Positions 4,501 through 51,712 of a stretch of 64,000 bases of DNA are shown here, in pieces. Every line of letters begins with the position of its first letter. Position 1 is the stretch's first letter. The stretch is from positions 676-64,675 of the forward strand of contig JAIBAK010000016.1 in assembly GCA_019695215.1 (NCBI GenBank), written 5' to 3'. The notes below the pieces were generated by a model. That model was given only the letters and a program-made list of their open reading frames with translations. It was not told the origin of the DNA and did not search any database. This stretch comes from Bacteroidia bacterium. GTDB taxonomy: Bacteria > Bacteroidota > Bacteroidia > UKL13-3. The translations under genes and the position numbers were made by a program.

Positions 4501-7500
4501 ATGAAACAAAAACGACTTTTCATCGTAATGACTTTGCTTTGCCTTTTGGCAACCCATGCGCGGGCACAGGTGCCCTGCGCTTTTGACACCCTCCAACAGA
4601 TTTTCAGTACCCAACCCGGTTATTGGCCCTTGCATAAGGGACATGAAAACCGGATTGATTACTATCGTAACCATCCTTCGGAAATTAACGAACAATACCG
4701 GCCGGGGCCAAACTCAGAAGCATCCACCTGTTTTAAGACAAGGTTTATGATTCCTGTAGTGGTGCATATTGATAGCAGCGGAGGAACCGTAAACGTAACC
4801 AGCACCCAGGTACAAGACCAGTTGGATGCTGTAAATACCATCATGAAGAATTATGGCATTCAATTATGTCTTGCCCAGAAGAAACCAAACGGAACCAGCT
4901 TTAGCGGCATCAACTATTTTAACGGGGCTTCGGTTGATAACCGCATCAGTTATCAATTGCCGTCTCTTACCAATATCCTTTACTACAATCCTAAAAAATA
5001 CCTGAACATTTATATCGTGCCTACCATTCTGAATGATAATTACAGCACAAGTACCTATGGGGGATACAATAATATTTTTCCCGGACAAAAAGGATTGGAC
5101 GGCATTGTGATACTGCATACCCGTTTTGGAAATTACCAAACCTGTTCAGGTTGTAATTTGGATGCAAATGCAAGGGGATTGGTGCTGGTTCATGAGCTGG
5201 GGCATTACCTTGGCTTGTGGCATACTTTTGAGGGAGGTTGTTCGGGAGGTAATACGGCAGGCACCTGTTCAACTCAGGGTGACCATTGTTGCGATACCCG
5301 CCCGGTAGCTACACAAAACTTTCTTTGCCCTTTACCTACCCCATCTTTAAGTTGTAGCAACACGGCTTATTACACAAGCAGCTTTGCGGAAAACCGGAGC
5401 AATTACATGGACTATGCCGAAGAACCCTGTAAAACCAATTTTACCTCTGACCAACAATCAATCATGTACAGTTCCTTGCTGGGGCCACGGAGTGAACTGG
5501 TGAGCGGAGAAAATCTTGACACATTGGGGCTGGCCTGCTGCTTTAAAACGGCTTGGTTTACGACTAACACCAATTTTTATTGCACAAGTGATATGGACAG
5601 CATCAGGCTAACGGCCTATCAAGGTGCATCTACCTACAGATGGCAAATTAAGGACAGCGTGAGCGGACGAACTGTTTTTGATACCGTTACCACCTCTAAA
5701 ATTTTCACTTACATGCCTGATAGTGCAGGTAAATATAATATCACCCTGCGTACCATTTACAGTAGTGGCGACACAGTGGAAATGAAACGAATCATGTATA
5801 TTGAGATATCTGATTGCAATACTCCGATAGCATCTACAAAAGGTAATTGGTATTTTGGGCAATGGGCTGGATTGAGATTCACTACCAACGGAGTCTTCAG
5901 GGATATGGGGCCTTGGATTAATCAGCTTCCTGATAACATTTTCACGGGTGAAGGCAGTGTAAGTATCAGTAACCCGCAGGGGCAACTATTGTTTTACGCA
6001 GGGGGAGATTTGTATGCCCCGGGTTATATGAATGTGTACAACAAAAAATATAAGCAGTTTCATACAAGCCCGGTGAAGGGGGATATGAGCAGTGCGCAAA
6101 CTGGAATCATATTACCCTCACCTAAGAATAAACAACGGTATTATCTTTTTACGGTGTCCGGTCTTGATGCTAATGTAACTTTATCTTTGAACAATAGTGG
6201 ATTCAGGTATTCCATCGTTGATACAACCGTAATAGACCTGAGCGATCCAAACGATCCAATTTATTGTGAGATTGACACACCAAATTTCAAAGATGTTCCG
6301 ATTAAAGCTCCGTCAGGGTCGCAATTCCACCCGGTAGACAGTTCCCTCATCTGCGGGGAGATGATTACCGCTGTTTCCAAGTGTAACGGGCGCGATTATT
6401 GGATTATTGTTGTAGATCGTTCGGCCAATGATTCGTTATATGCCAATTACCACAAACTACTTGTCTATTCATTAGATTCGGCAACGGGAGTTACGTTTAG
6501 CCATGTAAGCAGTTTCCGGTTAAGTATTGATGGTGGGAACGGAAATTATGCCTATGGTCAATTAAAGGCTTCGCCTGACGGAACCAAACTGGCTGCTCCG
6601 GGGTATGTGATGGAGTTTAACCGAATTACCGGAGCCATCACTATTATAGATTCTATGAGCGCTCCGGCACCAGATATATGGGCCTGTTCGTTCAGCCCTA
6701 ATTCAAAACGGTTATTCTATCTGGTCAATATTGACGCTTACACATCGGGTTTTCATCAATACAACCTGGAGGATTCAAGTGATGTTGTTATAGACACACT
6801 GCCCGAGTTTTTCGGCAATGCGATGCAACTCGGGCCTGACAATAAAATTTATATGGCGCAGATTGGACTTTCTCAATTAGGTATGATTAGCAACCCGGAT
6901 GAAGTGTATGACCCTAATAATCCTTCTTCGATTGATTACACAGCTGAAGGCCCTAAAATTGGAAGCAATGGAATTGGAGGAATGTGCCTGACGGGGCTGC
7001 CCAATTTTATGGATGCTAAATATCCTTCCGAAATAGAAAAGAAAATAGAATATGCACAGACAGGTTGTTTTAATTTCAAATTCACCAACACCGTATGCTG
7101 TACAGAAACTTTTAAATGGTATTTTGGTGACGGAGACAGTGCCAGCGGAAAAACCGTCAACCACACTTATGATTCGCTAAAATATTACTACGTGATGCTT
7201 ATTGCAGGCAGTGACACGCTAAGGGATACCATCAGGGTAGGAATAGATCAACCGATTATTGCAGGAAGCACCAATGCTATTTGTGATACCGTACATTTTA
7301 ATACGTATTCGGTTGGCAACAGGGTAACTGATTTAGTTTACCAATGGTTGGTGGATGCACCAAACCAAATGTACGTAGATAATTACGGAGGAGCCAATGT
7401 GAGCTGGAAGCAGGATAGTTCTTATATCCGGCTTAAAGCAACCAGCCCCGGTGGATGTAAGGATTCAAGCGAGGTAATGATTACCATCAGGCCACCTTTA

Positions 7501-10194: not shown

Positions 10195-10251
10195 GGGGCT
10201 CTCAAACAGAAATACCGGGTGTCCTGACGTTACAGTTAGGATACTCGGTTT

Positions 10252-11013
10252 TTAATCCACCGAATCATATTTCTCAAGTAATTTGAGAAACACTTCGAAG
10301 TCTTTAGGGTAAGGAGCGGTGAATAATTTTTCTTCCCCTTTTAATTCAAAATGTATCTGGTAAGCATGCAATGCCACCCGTTTCATCATGGGTTCCTCGT
10401 TGCTCCATTTACCTGTTTTAAACTTTCGTTTCACCGATGACAGCATGGGCTTTTTTCCACCGTACAACTCGTCTCCCACTATCGGAAAATTTTGAGATGC
10501 AAGGTGCACACGTATCTGGTGTAAACGCCCCGTGAGCGGCTGGCATCCTACCAGCGTAAAATGCCCGAAATATTTTAAGGAATGAAATATAGTAACCGCC
10601 TCTTTTCCCCTTCCGTAATCAATAACGGCAATGCCTTTTGAGTTGGTATGCAGGGGAAGTTTCACTTCTGTCTCGTTAAATTCGGCATGATCGGCTACCA
10701 CGGCATGGTACAATTTCCCAACATTTCTGTTTTCTAACTGTATGGCAATTTCCCTATAGGTTTCCTGATTTTTTGCAATGATGAGTACCCCGCTGGTTTC
10801 TTTATCGAGCCGGTGACAAAGACTTGCCGTAGCGCAATATTTTTTTGCCATTGAAACTATGCTCGGGCCTTCTCCGGTGCGTTCGTCCAATGAAGAGATA
10901 TGCGGTGGCTTGTTCAGGATAATCAGGTCGTCATCTTCATGTATGATGAGTTCCGGAAAACGGGGAAATTTAATCTGCTTTGCTTCCATATAATGAAGCC
11001 GCAAATTAAACAT
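10252..11013 (-). CDS. RluA-family 23S rRNA/tRNA pseudouridine synthase.
   Basis: Catalytic motif 'HRLDKETSGVLIIAKN' (conserved Asp in the HRLD box) and 'GRLHQIRVHLAS'. It overlaps the histidine kinase stop by 1 nt. Confidence 0.8.
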   Translation of the reverse strand: MFNLRLHYMEAKQIKFPRFPELIIHEDDDLIILNKPPHISSLDERTGEGPSIVSMAKKYCATASLCHRLDKETSGVLIIAKNQETYREIAIQLENRNVGKLYHAVVADHAEFNETEVKLPLHTNSKGIAVIDYGRGKEAVTIFHSLKYFGHFTLVGCQPLTGRLHQIRVHLASQNFPIVGDELYGGKKPMLSSVKRKFKTGKWSNEEPMMKRVALHAYQIHFELKGEEKLFTAPYPKDFEVFLKLLEKYDSVD

Positions 11014-17475: not shown

Positions 17476-19332
17476 TTACCTTAATAATGTTACCGAGCCG
17501 GTATATTTTTTTGCATGATGTTCGAGCACATAATAATATACCCCCTCACTCAACGGGCTCCCTTTAAAATTTCCGTTAAAGCAGGTTCCGTCTTTGTCCG
17601 AATCAAAAATCAATTCCCCCCAGCGGTTGTATATAAATATTCGCGAACAACCCTGCTCTAAGGTAAGCCCTCGAAGAGCGAGGCATTCATTCAATCCGTC
17701 TTTGTTCGGAGTAAAAACATTATAAACCATCACCAGCGAATCGCTGCTATACGGAGTAATTGTTTTGGAAGCCGTATCCGCACATCCGCTGTCGGTAACA
17801 ATAAATTGTAACTCATAGGTTTTATTAAACTCATAAGGTAATTGTACCAGCTCTTCCCTGTTAACTGCAACTCCGTCTAAAAACCATTTACTTTGATTTA
17901 CCACCCCGGGAGAATCAATTTGCAATTTAGCATCTTTACACAAAGGTTTAAACTGATATTTATAATCAGCTTTTACATCAACCACAAAAACATGAACCGT
18001 ATCGGTGTTTACACAAACATCGGTATTTCGGGTAGCAACATACGTAATGGAAAAAGGAGGTTTGGCCGTTGGTTCGCCCGAAGCAGGATTGTCGAGGTAA
18101 TCGGGAGGCGACCATGTATAGGAAAAGCTACCGGTATTTTCTGTACCCAGAACTAAGGAATCTCCCTTACAAATGAGCCGGTCCTCTCCGGCAAACGTGC
18201 CTATATCTTTATCTATCGTTACGCTAACTAATGCAGAGTCGGAGCAATTGCCTTTGTAAGTAACTAACTTTACAATATAAGTTCCGGTTGAAGGATAAAT
18301 ATAAGTTGGCTCAGGTTGTGTGCTTGAATCGGAAGTAATTAATGTGTCGCCAAAATCCCATAAATAAGAAACGGCACCTACACTTTGATTTACAAACTTA
18401 ACGGTGTCGCTGCACAGGTGCATGTCTTTACTGAATGCGCTTACCACATCAAACTGACAGTTCAGCACGTTGAATTGAAAATCGCGAAGGGTTGAATTTA
18501 TAAATTTTCCGTTCCTGAATTCTTTTACCAGAATGCCCACCACATATTGTCCTGTTAACTGTGGCTTTACCTTTAGTAAACCCGTTTGGGGATGAATAGT
18601 AAGTTCCGGCACTCCCTTCATCATACTGTTCACTCCAAAACCATTTACCCAAACCACCTTTGAATAAGGAGGTGGTGATGGCGGGCGTGGAAGGTTATTA
18701 AAAAAATTGGCCCCGATAAACGGCTGGTACAATTCGTACACGAGTGAGTCTCCGTCTGCATCTGTTGCGGCATGACTGTAAATAAAATCACGTCCGGCAC
18801 ATAAAAAATTTGGAGGAAGCGAATTAAATACGGCTGACGAATTATATCCTTTCCCTCCTGTTGTATCCGGTATGTGACACCAGTACGTTGCCCCCACCTG
18901 TCCCGGAGTTTGGATATTGGTGATGGAATTATTTCGGCAACAACGCTGAAATGCCAGAATGTATCCACCGGCAATTTGGGGTAATGTAGTGTAATAGGTG
19001 TAAATGTATTTATCTACACAGGCATTTGGCGGGGGAGCTACGCAATTATAATTAACCGAATTTACTCTGACCGGAGGGGTTCGGTATTCCAGAATATTTT
19101 TCACTAAAGTACCACTGGTATCAAATACCCCAATCATGGCATTTGTGTCAAGTGCAATGGCCTGTTGCGAACCAAAGGCACAGTCGATATACAAAATGAG
19201 TTTTACCTCAAAACTATCATCAGCAATATGACGATACGTGATATCTCCTCCCACAATATGGGTAGCATTTACTTTTGTTGCATAAACCAAAGCAACAAGA
19301 AAAAATAAAATAGGATATAATCGTTTAATCAA
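17476..19332 (-). CDS. Secreted adhesin-like protein with a PKD domain and a T9SS type B (gliding motility-associated, CHU_C) C-terminal domain.
   Basis: Signal peptide. PKD motif 'YLWDFGDT'. C-terminus 'YNVFTPNKDGLNECLALRGL...IYNRWGELIFDS...GVYYYVLE' is characteristic of TIGR04131-type type B sorting domains. Confidence 0.8.
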   Translation of the reverse strand: MIKRLYPILFFLVALVYATKVNATHIVGGDITYRHIADDSFEVKLILYIDCAFGSQQAIALDTNAMIGVFDTSGTLVKNILEYRTPPVRVNSVNYNCVAPPPNACVDKYIYTYYTTLPQIAGGYILAFQRCCRNNSITNIQTPGQVGATYWCHIPDTTGGKGYNSSAVFNSLPPNFLCAGRDFIYSHAATDADGDSLVYELYQPFIGANFFNNLPRPPSPPPYSKVVWVNGFGVNSMMKGVPELTIHPQTGLLKVKPQLTGQYVVGILVKEFRNGKFINSTLRDFQFNVLNCQFDVVSAFSKDMHLCSDTVKFVNQSVGAVSYLWDFGDTLITSDSSTQPEPTYIYPSTGTYIVKLVTYKGNCSDSALVSVTIDKDIGTFAGEDRLICKGDSLVLGTENTGSFSYTWSPPDYLDNPASGEPTAKPPFSITYVATRNTDVCVNTDTVHVFVVDVKADYKYQFKPLCKDAKLQIDSPGVVNQSKWFLDGVAVNREELVQLPYEFNKTYELQFIVTDSGCADTASKTITPYSSDSLVMVYNVFTPNKDGLNECLALRGLTLEQGCSRIFIYNRWGELIFDSDKDGTCFNGNFKGSPLSEGVYYYVLEHHAKKYTGSVTLLR

Positions 19333-19470: not shown

Positions 19471-20124
19471 CTATGCCGTGAGTGCAGGCAACGGAACTTC
19501 ACCCTTAATATCTTCGACCCAGTTTTGAAAAAGCTGCTCTTCAATTAAACAGGCATCGGCTGCCAGCACCTCCCATTGCTCATGAAACTCCTGCAACATG
19601 GAGGTCATTTCTTCCAGATGACCGTCTTCTTCCAGAATAATTGATTTTACATTCACTTTAGAACCTGCTTTATCAAGTTGTTTCTGGTATATACCATAAA
19701 GTACATCCGCTCTTACTTCAATGGCATAAGTAACCAGCAGGTAGGCGCCCTGCCTTAATTGTTCTGCACTAAACTGCCATTGCTTTTTCAGCATCCGGCA
19801 AACTTCGGCATCTAAGCGGTGCAGGTATAAATAGCTGCTCATGGGCGCCAGCAAAAACTCCCTGCTGTAATCTGCACAAAGGCCTGTTCCTAATTTCCCG
19901 ATTTGTTTTTTCAGGTAATAGGCATGGCGCGCTTCCTCGGCCGCATGTTTTAAAATGGTTAAGGTGGTATGAACCGGATGTTCGTTGCGTGCTATTTTCC
20001 GGGCTCCCGTATTTTCCATCATCGAAAGCGTATTCAACCAACGGGCATGCAATAAATGGTCGGCAGTAACCGACTGCATCACCTGCTCAAAAAGTTTTAC
20101 CGATTGCTCATTCATCGTTTTCAT
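19471..20124 (-). CDS. Ferritin-like diiron-carboxylate four-helix-bundle protein of unknown function. It is the last, translationally coupled gene of the biotin operon.
   Basis: All-helical 217-aa protein carrying a canonical diiron ligand pattern: E36 ('MMENTGARK'), E64xxH67 ('AEEARHAYY'), E136 ('YAIEVRAD'), E166xxH169 ('LEEDGHLEEM'). It overlaps the bioA stop by 17 nt on the same strand. Confidence 0.6.
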   Translation of the reverse strand: MKTMNEQSVKLFEQVMQSVTADHLLHARWLNTLSMMENTGARKIARNEHPVHTTLTILKHAAEEARHAYYLKKQIGKLGTGLCADYSREFLLAPMSSYLYLHRLDAEVCRMLKKQWQFSAEQLRQGAYLLVTYAIEVRADVLYGIYQKQLDKAGSKVNVKSIILEEDGHLEEMTSMLQEFHEQWEVLAADACLIEEQLFQNWVEDIKGEVPLPALTA

Positions 20125-21406
20125 TCGCTATTTCACTTAATACCTCTGTTATTTGCCGATGCACGTAAACAAGTTCTTCTTCGGTTATACAATAAGGAGG
20201 AACCATATAAATAATATTTCCGAGCGGCCGCATCAACACCTCCCGGCTTAAAAATTTCTGATATAAAATCTGTTTCAGGTTATTGGTGTACGATGTTTCA
20301 TTCCCCGTTCTAATGGTTAATGCCAGAATGGTTCCGCAACAGCGGGCATCAGCTACCAACGGATGCACAGCCATTTTTTCACAAAATGTTTTCTGCATCC
20401 TGCTTATGTTAACAATTGTTGTTGTGCAACGCTCCTTCGTAAGTAAATCAAAACTGGCATTGGCCGCTGCGCAGGTGAGCGGGTTGGCCGTGTACGAATG
20501 ACCGTGATAAAAAGTAAAATCAGGATGGTGTGAGAGAAAAGCTTCGTAAATTTTTGCGGAGCAAGCCGTGATTCCCATGGCCATAGTGCCACCGGTTAAT
20601 CCCTTAGAGAGGCACATTATATCGGGTTTGTGCTGTATATAATCGGTGGCAAATAATTTTCCGGTACGCCCGAATCCGGTAAATACTTCATCGGCTATAG
20701 CCAGCGTTTCATACTTGTTGCACAGAGCCACATATTGCTCAAGCACCGAAGCTTCATACATTAACATACCAGATGCGCCCAGCACCAATGGCTCAAAAAT
20801 AAAAGCAGCCACATCGCCTTTCGTTAATTCAGTCTCCAGAAATTTGATACTCTCCTCTCCCGAAGACTTATCAGAAAACGGAATAAAGGTTACCTCAAAC
20901 AGGTACTCATTAAATGCCTGTGTAAATAATCCGCGGGCGCTAACGGACATAGCCGCAAACGTGTCGCCATGGTAGGCATGTTCTAAAGCAAGTATTCTTT
21001 TCTTATGCGGGTGCCCGATATTTTGCCAGTACTGCAAAGCCATTTTCAACGCAACTTCCACGGCAGTTGAACCATTATCGGAGTAAAATATCTTTTTGAT
21101 ACCGGCAGGTAAAATACTCAATAAATTTTCAGCAAGCTTTATAGCGGGCTCGTGCGTGAATCCTGCAAAAATGCAATGCTCCAATTCGCGTGCCTGTTCA
21201 GCAATTTTCTCAGCTATATACGGATGCGAATGTCCGTGCAGGTTTACCCACCACGAAGAAATAATATCGAGGTAACGATTGCCCTTTTCATCATACAGCC
21301 AGGCACCTTCTCCTTTCACAATTCCTATTGCATCAGGTGCAAGTTGCATCTGTGTGTACGGATGCCATATATGCTGCTTATCTCTTTCGGTTAATGAGTA
21401 CTCCAT
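20108..21406 (-). CDS. bioA: Adenosylmethionine-8-amino-7-oxononanoate aminotransferase.
   Basis: N-terminus 'DKQHIWHPYTQM' (E. coli 'DQRHIWHPYTSM'). Class III PLP aminotransferase motifs 'DEVFTGFGRTGKLFA', 'LSKGLTGG'. Confidence 0.9.
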   Translation of the reverse strand: MEYSLTERDKQHIWHPYTQMQLAPDAIGIVKGEGAWLYDEKGNRYLDIISSWWVNLHGHSHPYIAEKIAEQARELEHCIFAGFTHEPAIKLAENLLSILPAGIKKIFYSDNGSTAVEVALKMALQYWQNIGHPHKKRILALEHAYHGDTFAAMSVSARGLFTQAFNEYLFEVTFIPFSDKSSGEESIKFLETELTKGDVAAFIFEPLVLGASGMLMYEASVLEQYVALCNKYETLAIADEVFTGFGRTGKLFATDYIQHKPDIMCLSKGLTGGTMAMGITACSAKIYEAFLSHHPDFTFYHGHSYTANPLTCAAANASFDLLTKERCTTTIVNISRMQKTFCEKMAVHPLVADARCCGTILALTIRTGNETSYTNNLKQILYQKFLSREVLMRPLGNIIYMVPPYCITEEELVYVHRQITEVLSEIANENDE

Positions 21407-22017
21407 ATTTCGGTTTCAGGCAATAGCTGTGACGCCTGTTGGGTTATAAATTCTTTGCTTATCGGGTTGACAAACGGAATTCGGGCAATTACCCTGTGCC
21501 GTGTATGTTGCAGAATAAACGCTTCGGATTCTTTATTGGTTTCACCACAAAATACAAGTCCGGCAATTTTAATTTTATGCTGTTTAAGCACCTCTAAGGT
21601 AAGCATACTGTGATTGATGCTTCCGAGATAATTGGCCATTACCACTACTACCGGCAACTGTAAATGTTTTACCAGATCGAGCATGGTAAATTCGTCATTC
21701 ACGGGAGAAAAAAGTCCACCGGCCGTTTCTACCAGTATACTTCTTTGGGAAGATGGCAGTACAAAATCACTAAGCTGAATTTGCACCTGTTCTTTTTTGG
21801 CTGCAGCATGTGGCGATGAGGCTTCATTTAAAAGGTAACGTTCGGGATGAACAAACTGTCCGCTCCATTGCTGCACCATGATGCTATCACTGCTGTCAAG
21901 ACTTCCGGCCTGTATGGGTTTCCAGTAATCCATATTCCACGCTTTGGCCAATACAGCAGAGGCAACTGTTTTGCCTATGCCGGTATGAATACCTACTACT
22001 CCAATGGCTTTAAACAT
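21391..22017 (-). CDS. bioD: Dethiobiotin synthetase.
   Basis: P-loop 'GIHTGIGKTVASAVLAKA' (E. coli 'GTDTEVGKTVASCALLQA'), 'ILVETAGGLFSP'. Confidence 0.9.
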   Translation of the reverse strand: MFKAIGVVGIHTGIGKTVASAVLAKAWNMDYWKPIQAGSLDSSDSIMVQQWSGQFVHPERYLLNEASSPHAAAKKEQVQIQLSDFVLPSSQRSILVETAGGLFSPVNDEFTMLDLVKHLQLPVVVVMANYLGSINHSMLTLEVLKQHKIKIAGLVFCGETNKESEAFILQHTRHRVIARIPFVNPISKEFITQQASQLLPETEIWSTH

Positions 22018-23146
22018 GATTCAACTCCGTTAGTAAATGATCAATTTGCTCCTTTGTATTATAGCTGTGCAAACAAATACGTAAACGCTCTGTTCCTTCT
22101 GGAACCGTAGGAGATAAAATAGCCCGCACATCCAATGCCTGCGCCTGCAACCGGCTGCTCACCATTCGTGTTTTTTCATTCCCTCTAATCTGAATGGATT
22201 GAATGGCACTTTTGCCGCATTGTATTATGTACTCTTCTTTAAGCTGATTGCTTTGCTCTTCGAAATAAGTAATAAGTTGCCACAGTTTTTCGCGCAGCGT
22301 TTCGCTGCTCTTCATAAGTTGATGCGCACAATGGATAGCCGCCAGACTATGCAGTGGCAATGCAGTGGTATAAATAAAGGAGCGCGAAAAATTAATCAGA
22401 AAATCTCTTAGCACTGCCGGGCCAACAACTACCGCTCCGTGGCAGCCAAGTGCTTTCCCAAAAGTATGAATGCGGGCAAAAACCCGATTCTGTAATTGCT
22501 TACTTTGTACCAGCCCTTCTCCCTGCAAACCAAAAATTCCGCTGGCATGGGCTTCATCAATAATTAAAGCCGCCTGATATTTTTCTGCGAGCTTTGCCAG
22601 TTCTTCCAATGGCACTGTGTCTCCGTCCATCGAATAAACAGACTCGGCTACAATGAAGATGTTTCCATGAGCAAGCCGCATTTTTTTTTCAAGGTCGGTT
22701 AAATCATTGTGCCGGAATGAAAATTTGGTACCGGCCAAACTTAACCGAATGCCATCGTGAATACTTGCATGGCAATGCTGATCATATAAAATGGTATCGT
22801 GCCGGGAAGCGATGCATGACAATAAACCAAGGTTGGCATCGTAACCCGAATTAAAAATAAGAGCAGCTTCCGTATGATAAAAAACGGCCAGTTCTCTTTC
22901 TAATTGTTCGGCATAGGCTGTATTCCCGCTGATGAGACGCGAACCACCGGAACCGCAGCGAGGCAACTCGGTTTTGCCCAGTTCTTCTTCCACCGCTTTA
23001 TCTAACGAACCATTGCGGGCAAGCCCTAAAAAATCGTTGGAACTGAAATCGGCAAAGGTTGAAGGTAACACACGTAATTCCCTGAACAGTTGTTTTGCCT
23101 GTCGTGCCTGTAAGGTTTGTTGCAGAAAACGATCAACCTTATTCAA
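22010..23146 (-). CDS. bioF: 8-amino-7-oxononanoate synthase. It probably starts at the TTG at 23146. The six-frame ORF runs to the ATG at 23281, which would overlap bioB by 125 nt.
   Basis: 'FSSNDFLGLARNG' (E. coli 'FSSNDYLGLSHH'), PLP lysine region 'TFGKALGCHGA'. A TTG start gives the N-terminus LNKVDRFLQQTLQARQAKQLFRELR, which matches the length of the canonical BioF N-terminus and lies 10 nt after the bioB stop. Confidence 0.8.
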   Translation of the reverse strand: MNKVDRFLQQTLQARQAKQLFRELRVLPSTFADFSSNDFLGLARNGSLDKAVEEELGKTELPRCGSGGSRLISGNTAYAEQLERELAVFYHTEAALIFNSGYDANLGLLSCIASRHDTILYDQHCHASIHDGIRLSLAGTKFSFRHNDLTDLEKKMRLAHGNIFIVAESVYSMDGDTVPLEELAKLAEKYQAALIIDEAHASGIFGLQGEGLVQSKQLQNRVFARIHTFGKALGCHGAVVVGPAVLRDFLINFSRSFIYTTALPLHSLAAIHCAHQLMKSSETLREKLWQLITYFEEQSNQLKEEYIIQCGKSAIQSIQIRGNEKTRMVSSRLQAQALDVRAILSPTVPEGTERLRICLHSYNTKEQIDHLLTELNHV

Positions 23147-23156
23147 GTCTGTATAT

Positions 23157-24143
23157 TTAACTTGCGTGAAGTGTTTTTTCTTTCTTAAATGGCTGGCTGG
23201 CACGAAGACCAAGAATCTCAAACATTTGTTTGTCTTCATTGAACTCCGGATTAGGAGTGGTAAGTAATTTATCTCCGGCAAAAATAGAATTGGCTCCGGC
23301 CATAAAACACAAAGCCTGCTCAGCCATGGATAACTCGAGTCTTCCTGCTGATAATCGTACTGCCGATTGCGGCATCACCATGCGTGCAGTAGCTACCATG
23401 CGCACCAGCTCATAAAACGGTACCCGTTGTTGTTCTTCAAGCGGAGTTCCTTTTACAGCTACCAGTGCATTGATGGGAACAGATTCGGGAGGCACCGGTA
23501 AATTTACCAATGTAAGCAACATGCCAATGCGGTCTTCTTCCGTCTCACCCATTCCTATAATTCCACCTGAACAAACCGTGATGCCCGCTTTGCGCACATG
23601 ACTTATCGTATTCAACCTGTCATCATAGGTACGGGTTGAAATAATATTACCGTAATTCTCGGCCGAAGTATCAATATTATGGTTGTAGGCGTACAAACCG
23701 GCATCGGCTAATTTTTGCGCCTGTTGTTCGGTAAGCATTCCCAGGGTACAGCATACTTCAAGTCCCAGTGAGTTCACTTCTTTTACCATATCAAGTACCC
23801 GGTCAAAATCGCGGTTGTCGCGCACTTCTCTCCAGGCTGCTCCCATGCAAAAACGCGAAGCTCCACCGGCTTTGGCATTTTGTGCCGCCTCCAATACTTC
23901 TTCGGTTTTCATCAGTGGCTGAACTTCTACATCGGTATTGTACCGTGCCGCCTGCGGACAATAAGAACAGTCCTCTGAACAGCCTCCGGTTTTAATAGAA
24001 AGCAGGCTGCTTACCTGCACTTCTCCAAAACTGTGGTGTTGCCTGTGCACATTTGCCGCTTCCAGCACCAGTTCTAATAAAGGTTTGTTGTAAATAGTTT
24101 GTAATTCTTCCCGCGTCCAAAAACGTTTTACAGACTCTGACAT
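23157..24143 (-). CDS. bioB: Biotin synthase (radical SAM).
   Basis: Radical-SAM cluster motif '[12 protein letters not shown]', 'VCCTLGML', 'YNHNIDTS'. Length is 328 aa. Confidence 0.95.
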
Positions 24144-24165
24144 AAACTAAAGATATTATTCGAAA

Positions 24166-26886
24166 CTAAATTATTCCTTTTGCTTTTTCAAGGGCAGCTT
24201 TTAACCCTTCGGATTTGGTTCCTCCGGCCGTGGCATAAAACGGCTGACCTCCCCCGCCTCCCTGTATTTCTTTTGCCAGTTCCTTTACAATGTTTCCGGC
24301 ATGAAGATTTTTTTCTTTTACCAAATGCTCACTGATCATTACACTTAGCAAAGGTTTTCCCTCTATCACGGTTCCCAGCACACAAAATAAATTTTCTATA
24401 TCCTGCTTCAACTGGTAACTCAGGTTTTTCAACTGCTCGGCCGATGGGATATCCACCAGTTCTATCAGTTTATTTATCCCGTTTACACCTGAAACTTTTA
24501 ACTTCAAACTCTCCTTCACTTTCACCGTTTTCTCCCCTTCTAACTGCTCTAATTTTTTCTGAAGTTTTTCTTTTTCTTCTACCAGTTGGGAAATGCTTTT
24601 TACAGGGTCTTTTGATTTGAGCAATTCTTTGATATGTGCTACGGTAGCCTGTTGCTCATTTACAAATTGCTCGGCTGCATCGGCTGTGATGGCTTCTATT
24701 CTTCGCACCCCGGCAGCCACCGCACTTTCACTTAGTATTTTAAACAGGCCAATTTGCCCGGTAGCTTTTACATGAGTACCTCCGCACAACTCGCGCGAAT
24801 AGGTTTCGTCAAACGTAATTACCCGTACACTTTCTCCGTATTTTTCGCCAAACAACATCATAGCGCCCATGGTTTGCGCCTCGGCAATAGGTACATTTCT
24901 GCGCTCATCTAAAAGTATGTTCTCGCGTATTTTTCGGTTTACTATTTTTTCTACCTCTGCTACCTCTTCATCGGTCATGGCACTGAAATGGGAGAAATCG
25001 AAACGCAGGTATTCATTATTTACCAGCGATCCCTTTTGCTGCACATGTGTACCCAGTACTTTTCGCAGGGCGGCATGCAATAAATGCGTAGCCGAGTGGT
25101 TGTTCTCGGTAAGGTGACGTTTGCCGGTATCTACAACTGCTGTAAAAACTCCTTCGGTATTTTCGGGCAGTTTGGCTGCGAAATGAATAATGAGGTTATT
25201 TTCTTTTTTGGTATCGGTGATGAATACTTTTTCATTTACATTACTGATGAAACCGGTATCGCCCACCTGACCGCCACCTTCAGGATAAAAAGGTGTTTGG
25301 TCAAATACAAGTTGAAACTGCTCTTTCCCTTTGGCTTTTACCTTGCGGTATTTAATGATAGTAACTTCGCTTTCGGTGGTATCATACCCTAAAAACTGCG
25401 TGGGGTTTTCTTCACCAATTACTACCCAGTCTTCCGTATCTACCTCTGCTGCCTTGCGCGAACGGGCTTTTTGTTTGGCAAGTTCTTCTTCAAATTCTTT
25501 TTGATTAACAGTGAGATTATTTTCTCTTGCTATCAGCATTGTTAGATCAAATGGAAACCCATAGGTGTCAAACAATTTAAAAGCAAATGATGCAGAAATA
25601 GTATTTCCTTTCAAAACATAATATAATTCTTCATCCTCATTTTCTATTTCTGAAGGGACCATGATCCCCTTATTCTCTTTTCTGTTTTCGTATAGTTCAG
25701 CAATAAACCTCAGTTTTATGATGCCTTTCTCTAAAGTTCTTAAAAAAGATTGCTCTTCTTCTCTAATCACCTTCGCTACAAACTCCTTTTGGCTGTATAA
25801 CTCCGGAAAAACATTTTTAAAACTCTCTGCAATCACATCCACCAGTTGGCACAGGAAAGGTTCTTTCAGGTTTAAAAACTGAAACTGGTAACGCACGGCT
25901 CTGCGCAATATTCTGCGCACCACATATCCCGCTCCGCCACTGGCAGGCAATTGTCCATCGGCAATGCACAAACTGATAGCACGTATATGGTCAGCCAGCA
26001 CACGCATGGCAATGTCTCGTCTACGCTCGACATGACCAATGCTTTCATCATCAGCATTGGAAAATCCATATTTAAAGCCGGAATGCTTCTCTATAAACTG
26101 AATGGTGGGTACAAACACATCCGTATCGTAATTGGAACTTTTTCCTTCAATAGCCCTCACCAAACGTTCAAAGCCCATCCCGGTATCTACGTGCTGGGCC
26201 GGTAACTTTTCCAAAGAGCCATCGGCCTTGCGGTTAAACTCCATGAACACGTTGTTCCATATTTCAATTACCTGCGGGTGGTCGTTATTCACCAAAGTTT
26301 TTCCGTCTATGGTATTCCTTTCGGCATCCGGTCTCAGGTCAATATGTATTTCACTGCACGGTCCACAGGGACCGGTATCGCCCATTTCCCAGAAGTTGTC
26401 TTTTTTGTTTCCGTTCAGGATGCGGTCTTTATCAATATATTTTGCCCAGTTATCATAAGCTTCCTGGTCAAAGGCTAATCCTTCTTTTTGGTCGCCTTCA
26501 AACACGGTTACATACAGGCGGTCTTTGGGCAATTTATATACTTCGGTCAACAGTTCCCAGGCCCATTCAATGGCTTCCTTTTTAAAGTAATCGCCAAAAC
26601 TCCAGTTGCCCAGCATTTCAAACATGGTGTGGTGGTAAGTATCCACGCCCACTTCTTCCAGGTCGTTGTGTTTTCCGGAAACGCGCAGGCATTTTTGGGT
26701 ATCGGCCACGCGCTTGTATTTGGCCGGTTCGTTGCCCAAAAACCAGTCTTTAAACTGGTTCATCCCCGCATTGGTAAACATCAGAGTGGGGTCATTCTTC
26801 ACCACAATGGGAGCCGAAGGAACGATTTCGTGTCCCTTGCTTTTAAAAAAATCTAAAAAGGTTTGCCGTATCTCTGCTGCCGTCAT
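24166..26886 (-). CDS. alaS: Alanine--tRNA ligase.
   Basis: 'FTNAGMNQFKD', 'RVADTQKCLRVSGKHNDLEEVG', 'WNNVFMEFNR', and the C-terminal DHHA1 domain 'GGGGGQPFYATAGG'. Length is 906 aa. Confidence 0.95.
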   Translation of the reverse strand: MTAAEIRQTFLDFFKSKGHEIVPSAPIVVKNDPTLMFTNAGMNQFKDWFLGNEPAKYKRVADTQKCLRVSGKHNDLEEVGVDTYHHTMFEMLGNWSFGDYFKKEAIEWAWELLTEVYKLPKDRLYVTVFEGDQKEGLAFDQEAYDNWAKYIDKDRILNGNKKDNFWEMGDTGPCGPCSEIHIDLRPDAERNTIDGKTLVNNDHPQVIEIWNNVFMEFNRKADGSLEKLPAQHVDTGMGFERLVRAIEGKSSNYDTDVFVPTIQFIEKHSGFKYGFSNADDESIGHVERRRDIAMRVLADHIRAISLCIADGQLPASGGAGYVVRRILRRAVRYQFQFLNLKEPFLCQLVDVIAESFKNVFPELYSQKEFVAKVIREEEQSFLRTLEKGIIKLRFIAELYENRKENKGIMVPSEIENEDEELYYVLKGNTISASFAFKLFDTYGFPFDLTMLIARENNLTVNQKEFEEELAKQKARSRKAAEVDTEDWVVIGEENPTQFLGYDTTESEVTIIKYRKVKAKGKEQFQLVFDQTPFYPEGGGQVGDTGFISNVNEKVFITDTKKENNLIIHFAAKLPENTEGVFTAVVDTGKRHLTENNHSATHLLHAALRKVLGTHVQQKGSLVNNEYLRFDFSHFSAMTDEEVAEVEKIVNRKIRENILLDERRNVPIAEAQTMGAMMLFGEKYGESVRVITFDETYSRELCGGTHVKATGQIGLFKILSESAVAAGVRRIEAITADAAEQFVNEQQATVAHIKELLKSKDPVKSISQLVEEKEKLQKKLEQLEGEKTVKVKESLKLKVSGVNGINKLIELVDIPSAEQLKNLSYQLKQDIENLFCVLGTVIEGKPLLSVMISEHLVKEKNLHAGNIVKELAKEIQGGGGGQPFYATAGGTKSEGLKAALEKAKGII

Positions 26887-28372: not shown

Positions 28373-28735
28373 ATGAGTACAGACGAAATCCAACGCACCT
28401 CCTCCATTAATTTTAAAGTCCATTTAGATAAAGAAAACCTGCCGGTGGCCATCGATTGGACAGCCGATGACAGCGAGTTTGGCGAACCTCAGGCAGCCAA
28501 AGCCATCATGATTGGGTTGTGGGACGGATTGCAAAAAGAAGCCATGCGCATTGACCTTTGGACAAAAGAAATGAGCGTGGAAGAAATGAACCATTTCACT
28601 TTTCAGTTTTTAATGACTATGGCCGATAATTTCGAACGTGCCACCGGAAATGCCGAAGCTGCTAATGTACTTAGGGAAGCTTCGCACGAGTTTGGCCACA
28701 AAGCCGATGTTTTTGGCCCCGACCACCAGCATTGA
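28373..28735 (+). CDS. gldC: Small soluble protein resembling gliding-motility protein GldC (tentative).
   Basis: At ~120 aa, its size and the motifs 'INFKVHLDKENLPVAIDWTADDSE...AKAIMIGLWDG...IDLWTKEMSVEEMNHF' match my recollection of the GldC family. This is not verifiable without a search. Confidence 0.45.
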   Translation: MSTDEIQRTSSINFKVHLDKENLPVAIDWTADDSEFGEPQAAKAIMIGLWDGLQKEAMRIDLWTKEMSVEEMNHFTFQFLMTMADNFERATGNAEAANVLREASHEFGHKADVFGPDHQH

Positions 28736-28824: not shown

Positions 28825-29439
28825 ATGCCTAAAAAACTAAAAATCAGCCTGCTTTTACTAACTCTTGCCTTGCCGTGGGGTGCTCACGCACAAATTGGAA
28901 TTTCTGCAGGCCTCATTAAACCCAGCCTTCAATATGGTTTTGTGTTTAAACCAACCACCGGACTGGAACTATCATTTGCCAATGGCGATATAGACAGCCG
29001 GTTTAAAACAAAACTATCATTGGGATACTATTCACTTACTCCAAGATTTGATACCCTGCACAATGGAGGACTGTTTCACCAGTATAATACAACCACTTTT
29101 ACACCCGGAACTGAAATATGGAAAAGCTTTAAGGCTATCACCGTTGGTTTTCAATTTGAGTTTAAAGTTTTAGATAAACCCCTTTCCCCAACCTTAGGGT
29201 TGGATGTGGTTTATCAGGCAAATTCTTACAAATACGAAATTCATAACAAAATTGAAGATGGTAATTATGAAATGAGTTCTAACGCCATTGGTCTTACCCC
29301 CCGAATAGGATTTAGTTATGAATTAAACGATGCGTGGTTAATCAGCGGGATGGTGGGGAAAAATCTGGTAATGGATTGGGAACTGGCAGGTTATTCCTAT
29401 TGGAAAAGTATGGTAGGTGTAACGTATTATTTTAATTAA
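28825..29439 (+). CDS. Small outer-membrane beta-barrel protein (OmpA-beta-barrel/PorT-like family).
   Basis: Signal peptide 'LLLLTLALPWGAHAQ'. Alternating amphipathic beta-strands. C-terminus ends in aromatic 'VTYYFN'. Confidence 0.5.
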   Translation: MPKKLKISLLLLTLALPWGAHAQIGISAGLIKPSLQYGFVFKPTTGLELSFANGDIDSRFKTKLSLGYYSLTPRFDTLHNGGLFHQYNTTTFTPGTEIWKSFKAITVGFQFEFKVLDKPLSPTLGLDVVYQANSYKYEIHNKIEDGNYEMSSNAIGLTPRIGFSYELNDAWLISGMVGKNLVMDWELAGYSYWKSMVGVTYYFN

Positions 29440-29443
29440 CAGC

Positions 29444-30265
29444 ATGATTTCAATACCTGTAAATAGATTAAATAGGGTCTTACTAATTTGCTTCATAGGG
29501 GCATTAACCCTATTGTTCAATGGTTGTAAAAAAGGGAGTTTTGATTTATTCGAAGACCCAAGTAAAGGCGCGCTTCCTGAAATTGATTTGCTTGGGGCAA
29601 CCGTTGATGTGTATGATGTAACCTTAACGGCAAACGTAAAATCAGAAGGCAAGGCTCCCGTTGATTACATGGGCTTCTTTTACTCTCCGGATAATCCAAT
29701 GCCTGATGATAAAAGTTCTCAGATATTATTGAATGGCTTAAAAGGTATGTTTTCTTATACGATTTACGACCTGGATCCGGACACCGTGTATTATATCAGA
29801 GCTTTTGCCAAAAACGACTATGGATATGTATACAGCAAGCAGACGCTTAAAGTAAGAACCAGCCGCGTGGTAGCTCCGTGTTCATACACTCAAAATACCA
29901 TTATCAACCATACCGGAACACATACGTTTGATGAATTTGATATGAGTACCCATGAAGGATTTGGCTACTGGGAGTTAACTTTGAATGACTATTTCACCGG
30001 ATGGAACTACTATTTTAAATTTAACCGAATTCCACCGGGAACAGGTGAATATACCGTGGTGAATGATGTGTCGGGGTGGACCGATAAATGTGTTGAAGTT
30101 TATTTTGTGTCCAATATGCTTCAATCCTGGAGTATTGATCCGGGAACCAAGGTGTACGTAACCAAAAATGGAGATGGCTCCTTAAAAATTGAATTTTGCG
30201 ATTTACAATATACCAACAATTCGGGCAAGGCAAGTTTTAAAGGACACGTTCTCTTCAAACCTTAG
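29444..30265 (+). CDS. Hypothetical lipoprotein with a fibronectin-III-like N-terminal domain.
   Basis: Lipobox 'LLFNGCKKG'. No recognizable catalytic motifs. Confidence 0.45.
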   Translation: MISIPVNRLNRVLLICFIGALTLLFNGCKKGSFDLFEDPSKGALPEIDLLGATVDVYDVTLTANVKSEGKAPVDYMGFFYSPDNPMPDDKSSQILLNGLKGMFSYTIYDLDPDTVYYIRAFAKNDYGYVYSKQTLKVRTSRVVAPCSYTQNTIINHTGTHTFDEFDMSTHEGFGYWELTLNDYFTGWNYYFKFNRIPPGTGEYTVVNDVSGWTDKCVEVYFVSNMLQSWSIDPGTKVYVTKNGDGSLKIEFCDLQYTNNSGKASFKGHVLFKP

Positions 30266-31819: not shown

Positions 31820-33877
31820 TTAACGGCTGATAATGAATTTTTGAGTCGAAGTAAATCCGTTGGCTCCTTTAATGGTTACAAAATACACCCCGTTAGATAA
31901 ATCGGATGTACTGAATACCATGCTCTGATCGCCTGAAGTTAATTCGCCTTTATTTTCTGATAAAATAACACGCCCGGTAATGTCCATTATTTCCATAGTG
32001 ATATTGTCATTATTCACTAGGTTAAAATCAACCATTACATAGTTATTGGCAGGGTTTGGATAAACATTAACTGCATTTACGTTTGCCGGTTGTTTTACCG
32101 AAAGATTTCCGTTTAAAACTGACCAGTTAGAGTTATATACTTCTTTGGTAGTAGCATGCTGCAAAAACACCACTACTTCCAGATCGCTGAACTCTTCAAC
32201 CGAATGTTCTGTGCTCAGGTTAATTCTATTAGCTGATTGACCATCAATAGGCAGACGGAAAGTTCCCGGGAAGGTATAAGTTTGTGTAAATGTTTTGGTA
32301 CTTCCGGCTGTCATTGCAGTAACGGTAGTACCGCCAATAGCAGGGAGCATTTTCTTTAACACATGGTGAAATACGGTTTCGCCATTAGTCTTCTTATTCT
32401 GGTAGGTGTCTTTTTCAAGCACCGCAATATATAACTTGGTTGAGTTACTGATATCGGCATACGGTTTAATCATTACGTCAACTTTAATGGTTTGTCCGGT
32501 TATGGTATGTACGGCATAGATATCCAAAATAGCGGGTTTGCTCTGATACTGATCAAACAATGCCGAAGTATAACTTCCAGCATTTCCATCCCATCCGCCA
32601 TCTAATTCCATGCGTGGAATACTGTTAATAGCATAGGTAGATGACCTGCGGGTTACGCTCTCCGAAGTGCAATAAGGGTCGCCTGTGCCCGGAAAATCCT
32701 GCTGGTATTTTATTACAGTATAATCATTGATACTTTTTGAATTAACAATATTGGTCATGTTCACATTACCCGGTGCACATGGTCCGCAGGTTGACGAACT
32801 GAATACCTCATGCAATAACCTGCGATGCCCCAGTTGCGAAACCACAATGGTTGTAGCCCCAAGTGTATCATTTGATGTGTTCACATCGGCATTTGCCCCG
32901 TTAAGGTTGCTAGCCCATACTTTTATACTTTTAGCACCTACCGTAGTGCCTTTGTAAGGAGTAGTGTGCGCAAATGCATAAGTTCCTCCGCTTGCATTAA
33001 TGTTTACCCCTGTTACGTTCTGCGACACAACTGCTCCTCCGTCAACTGCATAGTTCAGTTTAAATGAGGTAATGGCAGTAGCACCCGGATTACTGATGGT
33101 TCCGGCTATTACCACATTCACATTTAACGCTGCGTAGGGAGCAATATTCAATTTGGTTACGCTCAAATCAAAGGCAGGCTGTGTTCCGTAAATAAACTTG
33201 TACACTTTGTCATTGGCATTCCCGGATGAACCTACCCGATTTGGAAAATCTGCAGAAGGACCTCCAATCATGGTTCCTGTGATTCCGGCTGAATTCTGGC
33301 ATCCCATAGTTCCGGTAAACGCTGCGCTGTTTGGCGAAGCATCATTGTACACAATATCAAAATTACCGGCTTCGAATAAACGAACGGCAAAATAAGAATA
33401 GTTGGATGATCCGGCAGCTACCCCTTCCTGTGAAGCGGTGAACCATTGTATAACATGAACCCGGTTTGGTGCAGTTCCATAGGTAAAATTCCTCACCTCT
33501 GTTTTTACCGAACTTCCTGAAATGGCTTTCATTTCCAAAGCATCCCAAAAGGCAAAAATGGCATTTTTAGGGGCCGATGCCGAAGGAATGGAAACGTTAG
33601 CCGATATACTGCTTGTTTCGGCATTATCAAAAGTAATATACCCGTTATCGCTGGCCTTGTATTGGGTAACAGCACTTCCGTAGTAATTAAAAGCAAACGG
33701 AATAGTTTGAGCTGTTGAAAGTACGTCATTGCTTCCCTGAGCCAGAATGACAGTTCCCGTGTTCAGCATGTTGTAATCGGTGGTGGTACCCGACTGCATC
33801 AGGTAATAATAGTTTTGCGCATAAGCGCCCATGCCTGCAAAAGCGGCAAAAACCAAACTGAGTATTTTTTTCTTCAT
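31820..33877 (-). CDS. T9SS type A C-terminal domain cargo protein with a thioredoxin-like CGPC-containing segment.
   Basis: Signal peptide. 'RRLLHEVFSSSTCGPCAPGN'. C-terminus 'VNVYPNPANNYVMVDF...GVYFVTIKGANGFTSTQKFIISR'. Confidence 0.75.
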   Translation of the reverse strand: MKKKILSLVFAAFAGMGAYAQNYYYLMQSGTTTDYNMLNTGTVILAQGSNDVLSTAQTIPFAFNYYGSAVTQYKASDNGYITFDNAETSSISANVSIPSASAPKNAIFAFWDALEMKAISGSSVKTEVRNFTYGTAPNRVHVIQWFTASQEGVAAGSSNYSYFAVRLFEAGNFDIVYNDASPNSAAFTGTMGCQNSAGITGTMIGGPSADFPNRVGSSGNANDKVYKFIYGTQPAFDLSVTKLNIAPYAALNVNVVIAGTISNPGATAITSFKLNYAVDGGAVVSQNVTGVNINASGGTYAFAHTTPYKGTTVGAKSIKVWASNLNGANADVNTSNDTLGATTIVVSQLGHRRLLHEVFSSSTCGPCAPGNVNMTNIVNSKSINDYTVIKYQQDFPGTGDPYCTSESVTRRSSTYAINSIPRMELDGGWDGNAGSYTSALFDQYQSKPAILDIYAVHTITGQTIKVDVMIKPYADISNSTKLYIAVLEKDTYQNKKTNGETVFHHVLKKMLPAIGGTTVTAMTAGSTKTFTQTYTFPGTFRLPIDGQSANRINLSTEHSVEEFSDLEVVVFLQHATTKEVYNSNWSVLNGNLSVKQPANVNAVNVYPNPANNYVMVDFNLVNNDNITMEIMDITGRVILSENKGELTSGDQSMVFSTSDLSNGVYFVTIKGANGFTSTQKFIISR

Positions 33878-46569: not shown

Positions 46570-46830
46570 TATTAAAGGGGAAATGCAGCAACCGAACAGT
46601 CGTTAGTGTCAGTATTTTAGCTAACAAACGTGCTGTAAAAAATTTAGACATTTTCTAAACTAAATTTATTACGCTCATTTACAAATATAAATTGGCGATG
46701 TATATAACTAAGTGTAAAAAATTAGTAAAATCCTCTGTGATTCACAAGACCATAATGTATTATTGCACCTCCGAATAGGATGCGTAAACCCTTTAAAACA
46801 CACACATTTACCATGATTTCAAACTTTTGT

Positions 46831-48309: not shown

Positions 48310-48340
48310 ATTACCAACCGAAAAAATTGAAATAGACGAT

Positions 48341-50179: not shown

Positions 50180-50198
50180 TTTAGTTACTTAAGAAATA

Positions 50199-51691: not shown

Positions 51692-51712
51692 AAAACTGAA
51701 ACAAGTAGTAAT

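Follow-up and report, generated by a model that had tools for sequence, protein, structure and literature searches.

The locus analyzed here raises the question of how a biotin operon is supplied with the pimeloyl thioester that BioF consumes, and of whether the last gene of that operon, a 217-aa ORF, might provide it. ORF listing and Pfam/NCBIfam searches of the window (the whole 64,000-nucleotide stretch of DNA that was analyzed) confirm that the ORF closes a bioB-bioF-bioD-bioA operon on the minus strand (Table 1), as had originally been read from the letters alone. The bioB product carries Radical_SAM and BATS domains (Pfam), and its ATG lies 22 nt past the alaS stop. For bioF, TIGR00858 is the best NCBIfam match, though its score is below the 426-bit cut-off of the model, and the product also matches Aminotran_1_2 in Pfam (E 1.5e-44).

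Table 1. Genes of the biotin operon, with coordinates in the window and the matches on which the calls are based.
Gene	Coordinates	Strand	Product and remarks	Evidence
bioB	23157..24143	-	biotin synthase of the radical SAM type; opens the operon	TIGR00433, E 1e-121, 406 bits (cut-off 225)
bioF	22010..23146	-	8-amino-7-oxononanoate synthase; longest ORF reaches 23281	TIGR00858, E 2e-102, 342.5 bits
bioD	21391..22017	-	dethiobiotin synthase	TIGR00347, E 5e-33; AAA_26, E 8e-50
bioA	20108..21406	-	adenosylmethionine-8-amino-7-oxononanoate transaminase	TIGR00508, E 7e-163, 542 bits (cut-off 405)
bioE orthologue	19471..20124	-	predicted ferritin-like non-haem diiron oxygenase	217 aa, last gene

The original prediction described these genes as contiguous and overlapping, and inspection of the junctions upholds this for bioF/bioD (8 nt), bioD/bioA (16 nt) and bioA/bioE but not for bioB/bioF. 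The 125-nt overlap of the latter pair is an artefact of the longest-ORF rule; homology to BioF in relatives begins at the TTG at 23146, just past bioB, and this codon, 10 nt past the bioB stop, is the likely start. Similarly, the overlap of 17 nt claimed between the ORF and the bioA stop is correct if translation begins at the ATG at 20124, but homologues of the protein start at the residue aligned with M4, and the ATG at 20115 is therefore probably the true start, giving a protein of 214 aa and an overlap of 8 nt with the bioA stop, ATGAATGA. Because the start of this last gene overlaps the stop of bioA, translational coupling is suggested, by which the protein would be made in step with the late biotin enzymes.

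The 217-aa protein contains a complete set of diiron ligands, E37, E64xxH67, E136 and E166xxH169, which differs from the set first proposed only in that the initial glutamate is residue 37 rather than 36. H67 and E166 are invariant in 52 family members that extend down to ~30% identity, and E37, E64, E136 and H169 are each conserved in at least 90% of them; judged by this conservation, the ligand set is not a product of chance. The protein had also been expected to be all-helical, and the AlphaFold2 model is indeed so, with seven helices and a mean pLDDT of 92.5. Its nearest folds are ADO/MiaE-like diiron oxygenases, and a ferritin-like helical bundle with cADO-type proteins as nearest solved relatives is likewise characteristic of BioE. 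The HMM searches that had been proposed alongside this structural comparison give no Pfam family above threshold and no NCBIfam match, the only Pfam match being to Rubrerythrin (PF02915; 17.3 bits against a cut-off of 22.8), which covers residues 129-185 only. MiaE (PF06175) has no Pfam match to the protein even at E 1 and none in NCBIfam, Aldehyde-decarbonylase and p450 have no Pfam match to it, and a PDB sequence-profile search with the family alignment returns nothing even at E 10. The closest solved MiaE/ADO-like structure, PDB 8fhc, is 15% identical in sequence. Identity as a CADD/HDO protein was considered and rejected, as was membership of the BioI family (P450 CYP107H1), given the lack of a p450 match in Pfam and the all-helical diiron bundle fold.

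Two studies have shown experimentally that BioE, a ferritin-like diiron oxygenase, constitutes a fourth pimeloyl route (PMC12704756, PNAS, 4 December 2025; PMC12915131, Adv Sci, 12 December 2025). With O2, BioE cuts C14-C18 acyl-CoA/ACP at C7-C8 to give pimeloyl-CoA/ACP, and mutagenesis shows that each of the six iron ligands (E26/E53/H56/E125/E155/H158 in EmBioE, from Elizabethkingia meningoseptica; E41/E68/H71/E140/E170/H173 in CpBioE, from Chlamydia psittaci) is essential (PMC12704756, PMC12915131). BLASTP aligns the window protein without gaps over 196 aa with protein P0382 of E. meningoseptica (54% identity, E 4e-75), all six ligands being in register with those of EmBioE, and gives 51% identity to Chryseobacterium indologenes P0380. 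Residue numbering and the bioL / bioEFD / bioBA locus identify P0382 as EmBioE. Thus, F24, E26, R31, K32, E53, H56, R87, E125, E155 and H158 are all found at the published EmBioE positions, and the locus comprises a divergent MocR-type GntR/aminotransferase gene, a 209-aa gene followed by bioF and bioD, and then bioB and bioA, which is the published arrangement. P0382 and P0380 are 65% identical to each other, the identity of EmBioE and CiBioE being reported as 63% (PMC12704756). Moreover, CpBioE is only ~40% identical to EmBioE and complements E. coli bioC/bioH mutants (PMC12704756, PMC12915131), and the window protein, at 54%, therefore falls by sequence identity inside the experimentally functional range of BioE.

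This relationship extends to the detail of the active site. The ligand spacing of 27/3/69/30/3 is the same in the window protein, EmBioE (offset +11) and CpBioE (offset -4). By published numbering and the latter offset, the acyl-pocket residues mutagenised in CpBioE (W33, L37, L40, I48, L105, V135, I139, L146, Y147, Y150 and L205) correspond to W, L, M, I, L, V, I, L, Y, Y and N in the window protein, where 9 of the 11 are identical (W29, L33, I44, L101, V131, I135, L142, Y143 and Y146) and the remaining two represent a conservative leucine-to-methionine exchange and a leucine-to-asparagine exchange. A sequence with CpBioE numbering was not found among the best 150 family representatives searched. 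Among the residues with which EmBioE contacts its carrier (F24, R31, K32 and R87), the equivalents of R31 and K32 are kept as R42 and K43. F24 and R87, at which substitution impairs the function of EmBioE (PMC12704756), are replaced by M35 and Y98, of which M35 is nearly invariant within the clade of the window protein.

Support for a role in biotin synthesis is also provided by gene context. A genome scan kept 80 related loci, all from close relatives and with Elizabethkingia not among them. In 51 of 76 related loci (67%) the gene immediately upstream, in the same orientation, is bioA, and the other 25 have no adjacent bioA, so that the linkage is strong although not universal, and at 12 loci bioB, bioF, bioD and bioA all precede bioE in the order seen in the window. 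Recurrent neighbors in the 80 loci are bioA and genes for a CDF transporter, a NUDIX protein, an aminotransferase, a sulfatase-family protein, MerR and ComEC; no conserved reductase or ferredoxin neighbor is found in them. The closest named homologues come from Chitinophagaceae and Sphingobacteriaceae, both of which are included in the published distribution of BioE (PMC12704756, PMC12915131), and among ten representatives of clusters at 50% identity the only names are those of Sphingobacterium proteins and unclassified Bacteroidota MAGs. Cultured relatives include Taibaiella and Flavipsychrobacter, and some family members are labelled Burkholderiaceae, perhaps through mislabelled MAGs. The identical 217-aa protein is seen only on Logan contigs of 2-3 kb, with runs SRR14610236, SRR14610250 and SRR1027651 among its sources, and the best match in a genome is 76% identical.

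No BioC/BioH/BioG/BioW/BioI/BioZ-type gene is present among 43 window ORFs scanned, which include every ORF of at least 150 aa not nested inside a longer one. The absence of these genes from the surroundings of the operon had already been noted, but the wider statement that no known pimeloyl-pathway gene lies nearby no longer applies, the ORF itself belonging to the now-known fourth route. An aa3-type cytochrome c oxidase cluster is encoded in the window, and the host is therefore predicted to respire O2, as an O2-dependent enzyme requires. With respect to regulation, tblastn with EmBioL reveals no homologue in the window or the 80 related loci, and we find no GntR/MocR ORF in the window. BioL beside bioE is typical of Weeksellaceae but is not universal, Chlamydia being without it, and it does not define the family (PMC12704756, PMC12915131). 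Given that BioL is absent from the window and these loci, the regulation of this bioE differs from that of the BioL-accompanied genes of Weeksellaceae. Scans for sigma-70 promoters and terminators at the operon ends give counts at or near shuffle expectation, Bacteroidota promoters lying outside the models of the scan, and an inverted-repeat search around these ends finds no operator-like palindrome.

Taken together, the sequence homology, the iron ligands, the fold and the surrounding genes make it very probable that the ORF encodes BioE in an uncultured, aerobic bacterium of the Bacteroidota related to Chitinophagaceae, its function being predicted and its mechanism drawn from the characterised orthologues. 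By analogy with these enzymes, the four-helix-bundle core would bind two Fe via E37, E64xxH67, E136 and E166xxH169, and O2 together with an external reductant would support the multistep oxidation of a C14-C18 acyl-ACP or acyl-CoA at C7-C8, with a net transfer of 10 electrons. The predicted products are the pimeloyl thioester and a free Cn-7 fatty acid. BioF would then condense alanine with this thioester, after which BioA, BioD and BioB would complete biotin. The operon would thereby encode the whole path from fatty-acyl thioester to biotin, leaving the BioC/BioH, BioW/BioI and BioZ routes unneeded. More tentatively, this clade may have an operationally distinct form of BioE, expressed without a BioL-type repressor and produced as the translationally coupled last cistron of bioBFDA-E. 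Deregulated EmBioE causes toxic over-consumption of long-chain acyl chains (PMC12704756), and the arrangement seen here might itself prevent this; in addition, M35 and Y98 might accompany a preference for acyl-ACP and the use of an unspecified physiological reductant. We regard this variant as possible but doubtful.

A related view is that the protein is a paralogue within the BioE family whose role has shifted, perhaps to that of a monomer acting on acyl-ACP only, to cleavage at another position, or to formation of another dicarboxylate, while remaining linked to biotin. Identity to EmBioE is 54% and not higher, the two residues replaced by M35 and Y98 are implicated in CoA/ACP handling by EmBioE, and BioL is missing nearby, as in Chlamydia, whose CpBioE is monomeric and ACP-specific (PMC12915131). 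The residues of the chain-positioning pocket, however, are almost all identical to those of CpBioE, both characterised BioE enzymes yield a pimeloyl thioester, and within the operon only BioF, whose substrate is pimeloyl-CoA/ACP, is a plausible consumer of the product. A change of preferred carrier, moreover, would be a detail within BioE function rather than a different function, and we therefore consider a shifted role improbable.

Two further readings place the protein outside the BioE family. The original prediction had allowed for a housekeeping ferritin-like hydroxylase, such as a MiaE-like tRNA hydroxylase or an ADO-like enzyme, that is merely co-transcribed with the bio genes. In Pfam there is neither a MiaE nor an aldehyde-decarbonylase match and the Rubrerythrin match is sub-threshold, identity to 8fhc is 15% versus 54% to a validated BioE, the PDB profile search is empty at E 10, and bioA is adjacent in two thirds of the related loci; this very improbable reading is effectively refuted already. 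The same weak Rubrerythrin match might instead be taken to indicate an iron-storage or peroxide-detoxifying protein of the rubrerythrin/bacterioferritin type that serves BioB by supplying or protecting its Fe-S clusters, and database annotations as "rubrerythrin" and "bacterioferritin (cytochrome b1)" point the same way. That match is under threshold, however, the protein, with its seven helices, exceeds ferritin and Dps in size, its hydrophobic acyl pocket is conserved, and both oxygenase activity and complementation of pimelate-pathway mutants have been demonstrated for its orthologues, making such a function hardly credible.

Identification of the ORF as BioE means that the biology has already been described, the family having been known since December 2025 (PMC12704756, PMC12915131); the gene is not a new discovery, and the suggestion that it might catalyze an undescribed step does not survive. 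The prediction of an O2-dependent acyl-ACP cleavage functionally analogous to that of BioI, on the other hand, is supported by the gapless orthology to EmBioE at 54% identity, the six ligands and the linkage to bio genes. Function was thus deduced correctly from a ligand motif and gene context alone, without tools, which validates the approach. The operon is predicted to encode all the steps that lead from fatty-acyl thioester to biotin via this recently described fourth pathway, and the main practical value of the result is in annotation. There is no BioE model in Pfam (2025) or NCBIfam 20.0 (June 2026), and the family comprises 3664 clusters at 90% identity and occurs in more than 463 species genomes. 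Database labels for its members include "rubrerythrin", "bacterioferritin (cytochrome b1)" and "hypothetical", and thousands of members carry labels of this kind. As a result, metabolic reconstructions are likely to mis-score Chitinophagaceae and Sphingobacteriaceae for biotin prototrophy.

Comparison with known systems places the window protein closest to EmBioE (BBD33_16475) and CiBioE (CEQ15_06550; PMC12704756), with which it has in common gapless full-length homology, the six-ligand set and its spacing, the fold class, linkage to bioF, bioD, bioB and bioA, and an aerobic Bacteroidota host. The layouts differ, however, in that all five genes form one bioB-F-D-A-E unit in the window, ending in bioE, whereas the other two have bioEFD and bioBA, and a divergent bioL (MocR) accompanies EmBioE and CiBioE but not the bioE of the window. 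The lineages (Chitinophagaceae-like versus Weeksellaceae) and the residues equivalent to EmBioE F24 and R87 (methionine and tyrosine) are also different. CpBioE (PMC12915131) resembles the window protein in its ligand spacing, in 9 of 11 pocket residues, as compared by published numbering only, and in the absence of BioL. More distant are the cyanobacterial aldehyde-deformylating oxygenase (cADO) and ADO-active MiaE-like proteins (PDB 5ux2, 8fhc), which show ~15% identity and no Pfam or profile match to the window protein; the cADO reaction is a C1 deformylation of aldehydes, whereas BioE performs mid-chain cleavage of thioesters. A parallel in function outside the family is Bacillus subtilis BioI (CYP107H1), which is encoded in a bio operon and cleaves long-chain acyl-ACP at C7-C8 in an O2-dependent reaction to give pimeloyl-ACP, the role predicted here. 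BioI is a haem-thiolate P450, however, to which the window protein, as a non-haem diiron four-helix bundle, is unrelated in both sequence and fold; it is an analogue of BioI and not a member of its family.

The final gene of the bioBFDA operon encodes a 217-residue protein (hereafter the window protein) that sequence comparison identifies as an orthologue in the BioE family. Characterised members of this family have been in the literature since December 2025, and the finding is therefore already known in kind. BioE was described from Elizabethkingia and Chryseobacterium as a ferritin-like non-haem diiron oxygenase that oxidatively splits C14, C16 and C18 acyl-CoA/ACP into pimeloyl-CoA/ACP and a Cn-7 acid, and its complementation of E. 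coli delta-bioC/H needs O2 (PMC12704756). Function of the Elizabethkingia meningoseptica enzyme (EmBioE) depends on E26, E53, H56, E125, E155 and H158 (PMC12704756), and the ligands of the Chlamydia psittaci enzyme (CpBioE) are E41, E68, H71, E140, E170 and H173 (PMC12915131). In the retrieved E. meningoseptica protein P0382 (209 aa), all the residues published for EmBioE stand at their published numbers, and the locus of P0382, in which a divergent MocR-type GntR/aminotransferase gene is followed by the 209-aa gene, bioF and bioD, and then by bioB and bioA, matches the bioL/bioEFD/bioBA arrangement in the literature. Identity between P0382 and the Chryseobacterium indologenes protein is 65%, the published figure being 63% (PMC12704756). 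BLASTP aligns the window protein with P0382 without gaps at 54% identity (E 4e-75), and its identity to the C. indologenes protein is 51%. All ligands are in register with P0382, as are R31/K32 (R42/K43 here), and 9 of the 11 acyl-pocket residues mutagenised in CpBioE are identical when compared by published numbering. Given that CpBioE is functional at ~40% identity to EmBioE (PMC12915131), the alignment places the window protein well within the functional BioE range.

The window protein contains two ExxH motifs (E64/H67 and E166/H169) and the single glutamates E37 and E136, with the same spacing as in the published enzymes (residue numbers 11 higher than in EmBioE and 4 lower than in CpBioE). 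The original prediction had named these ligands correctly except for the first, which it placed one residue off, at E36. From an alignment of 35 sequences, AlphaFold2 gave a confident seven-helix model (pLDDT 92.5, pTM 0.89), and the structures closest to it are ADO/MiaE-like, with identities of 16% or less. Such low-identity neighbours of a predicted fold agree with the published view that, among ferritin-like diiron oxygenases of solved structure, cADO is closest to BioE (PMC12704756). Foldseek and PDB sequence-profile searches gave no significant match. A MiaE-like housekeeping hydroxylase that is merely co-transcribed, which the original prediction had held out as its alternative, is rejected because no profile matches, identity to the nearest structure of this kind is only 15%, and linkage to the bio genes is strong. 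A rubrerythrin or ferritin role, which some databases assign to family members, was also rejected, the profile match being sub-threshold, the acyl pocket conserved and activity demonstrated in orthologues. The idea of a diiron analogue of BioI has proved correct, given the gapless alignment to EmBioE, the ligands, their spacing and the bio linkage.

The ORF listing shows five closely packed minus-strand ORFs at 19471-24143 and, together with the Pfam/NCBIfam matches, the junctions and the motifs, bears out an operon with a terminal diiron-ligand ORF. No NCBIfam model matched this last ORF. Overlaps are 8 nt for bioF/bioD, 16 nt for bioD/bioA, and 17 nt for bioA and the last ORF when counted from the ATG at 20124. 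Since homologues of the last ORF begin at the residue aligned with M4, the gene itself probably starts at the ATG at 20115, which gives an 8-nt overlap with bioA (ATGAATGA). For bioF, translation probably begins at the TTG at 23146, 10 nt past the bioB stop, and not at 23281, the TTG of the longest possible ORF. The alaS gene ends 22 nt ahead of the bioB start codon (gap 24144-24165), an adjacency also seen in the closest genome (locus L001, 3191-5976). Either the promoter of the bio genes is located within the 3' end of alaS or transcription of the operon continues from alaS. A search around the operon ends found no operator-like palindrome, and the promoter scan used a sigma-70 model, which is uninformative for Bacteroidota.

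Features of the window, with profile matches from Pfam and NCBIfam
Feature	Position	Strand	Match or content
bioB	23157-24143	-	TIGR00433, 406 bits
bioF (ORF)	22010-23281	-	best match TIGR00858, E 2e-102
bioD	21391-22017	-	TIGR00347
bioA	20108-21406	-	TIGR00508, 542 bits
Last ORF, 217 aa	19471-20124	-	sub-threshold Rubrerythrin profile match only (Pfam)
alaS	24166-26886	-	
Oxidase cluster	46780-54080		cytochrome c-COX2 fusion, COX1, haem O synthase (UbiA family), two COX3-like, SCO1/SenC, DUF420
Sorting-domain protein	163-1359		Por_Secre_tail or CHU_C
Sorting-domain protein	1833-4481		Por_Secre_tail or CHU_C
Sorting-domain protein	4501-10194		Por_Secre_tail or CHU_C
Sorting-domain protein	17476-19332		Por_Secre_tail or CHU_C
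Sorting-domain protein	31820-33877		Por_Secre_tail or CHU_C
Sorting-domain protein	56826-60932		Por_Secre_tail or CHU_C
GldC-like gene	28373-28735		
TamB-like gene	37612-42105		
Unmatched ORF	28825-29439		no Pfam match at E 1e-3
Unmatched ORF	29444-30265		no Pfam match at E 1e-3
Unmatched ORF	60950-61486		no Pfam match at E 1e-3
Unmatched ORF	61807-62286		no Pfam match at E 1e-3

Among the 43 ORFs scanned in the window, which include every ORF of at least 150 aa not nested within a longer one, there is no methyltransferase/esterase pair, BioW, P450, KAS III or MocR. The window does have a full gene cluster for an aa3-type cytochrome c oxidase, and the organism therefore respires oxygen, as O2-dependent BioE requires. 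C-terminal sorting domains for type IX secretion occur in six window proteins, including a 1897-aa M43 peptidase and a 618-aa PKD protein directly downstream of bioE, and these domains, with the GldC-like and TamB-like genes, are consistent with a gliding member of the Bacteroidota. The four unmatched ORFs encode 159-273 aa.

The BioE family comprises 3664 clusters at 90% identity and 557 at 50% identity (E up to 1e-3), and is found in >463 species genomes. Its published members include some from the taxonomic neighbourhood of the window protein, Chitinophagaceae and Sphingobacteriaceae being already within the published distribution (PMC12915131). The closest named relatives are from Chitinophagaceae (Taibaiella, Flavipsychrobacter, Nemorincola; ~60-64% identity) and also Sphingobacteriaceae (Mucilaginibacter, Pedobacter). 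The best genome match in the species collection, a 'Bacteroidia bacterium' MAG, is 76% identical and keeps the alaS-bioBFDA-E order, and the exact window protein was found only on short Logan contigs. In 51 of the 76 related loci with sufficient upstream sequence, bioA lies directly upstream on the same strand, and 12 loci have bioB, bioF, bioD and bioA all upstream of bioE in the order of the window. Neither the window nor the 80 related loci contain a homologue of EmBioL, the MocR-type repressor, and no ferredoxin/reductase neighbour of bioE recurs among the 80 loci. A conserved cassette of CDF cation-efflux protein, NUDIX hydrolase, bioA and bioE occurs at 7309-10597 of locus L022 and in 40 other Sphingobacteriaceae loci (Mucilaginibacter, Pedobacter, Daejeonella), with bioB, bioF and bioD usually elsewhere.

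Bacteroidota-type BioE is also encoded in MAGs labelled 'Bordetella parapertussis' (L020, CALQJX020000001.1; 62% identity to the window protein, locus GC 46.6%) and 'Janthinobacterium lividum' (L054, JBPBQV010000028.1; 59%, locus GC 38.2%). Because these GC values are far below those of Bordetella and Janthinobacterium, they suggest that the bins are contaminated or wrongly labelled. Records of this kind might underlie the 'Burkholderiaceae' branch in the published distribution (PMC12915131). In the predicted metagenomic protein P0129 (1911 aa), a BioE-like N-terminal part (residues 15-184, 57% identity) precedes HHH_3 and Peptidase_C25 domains; this probably reflects a frameshift or a read-through in gene calling, and not a genuine fusion. 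Family members (P0024, P0087, P0310, P0314) are labelled 'hypothetical protein', 'rubrerythrin', 'bacterioferritin (cytochrome b1)' and 'Ferritin-like domain-containing protein'. In practical terms, what matters most is that BioE is still missing from curated HMM libraries, there being no model for it in Pfam-A 2025 or NCBIfam 20.0.

Homology, ligands, fold and gene context come directly from this analysis. By analogy with the characterised orthologues, E37, E64, H67, E136, E166 and H169 would hold a diiron centre that activates O2 with an external reductant and oxidises C7-C8 of a long-chain acyl thioester over several cycles before cleavage, and the pimeloyl thioester would pass to BioF, encoded three genes upstream. 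bioE is the terminal gene and its start overlaps the end of bioA, a placement that probably couples production of its protein with production of the late enzymes, and without BioL such coupling may limit the over-expression cost reported for EmBioE (PMC12704756 / PMC12915131). That the window protein is a specificity variant within BioE, perhaps ACP-only or monomeric like CpBioE, is a low-probability alternative, its grounds being the absence of BioL and the presence of M and Y at the positions of EmBioE F24 and R87. In the reading that we prefer, a BioE orthologue, it has an operon layout other than that of Elizabethkingia and no BioL nearby.
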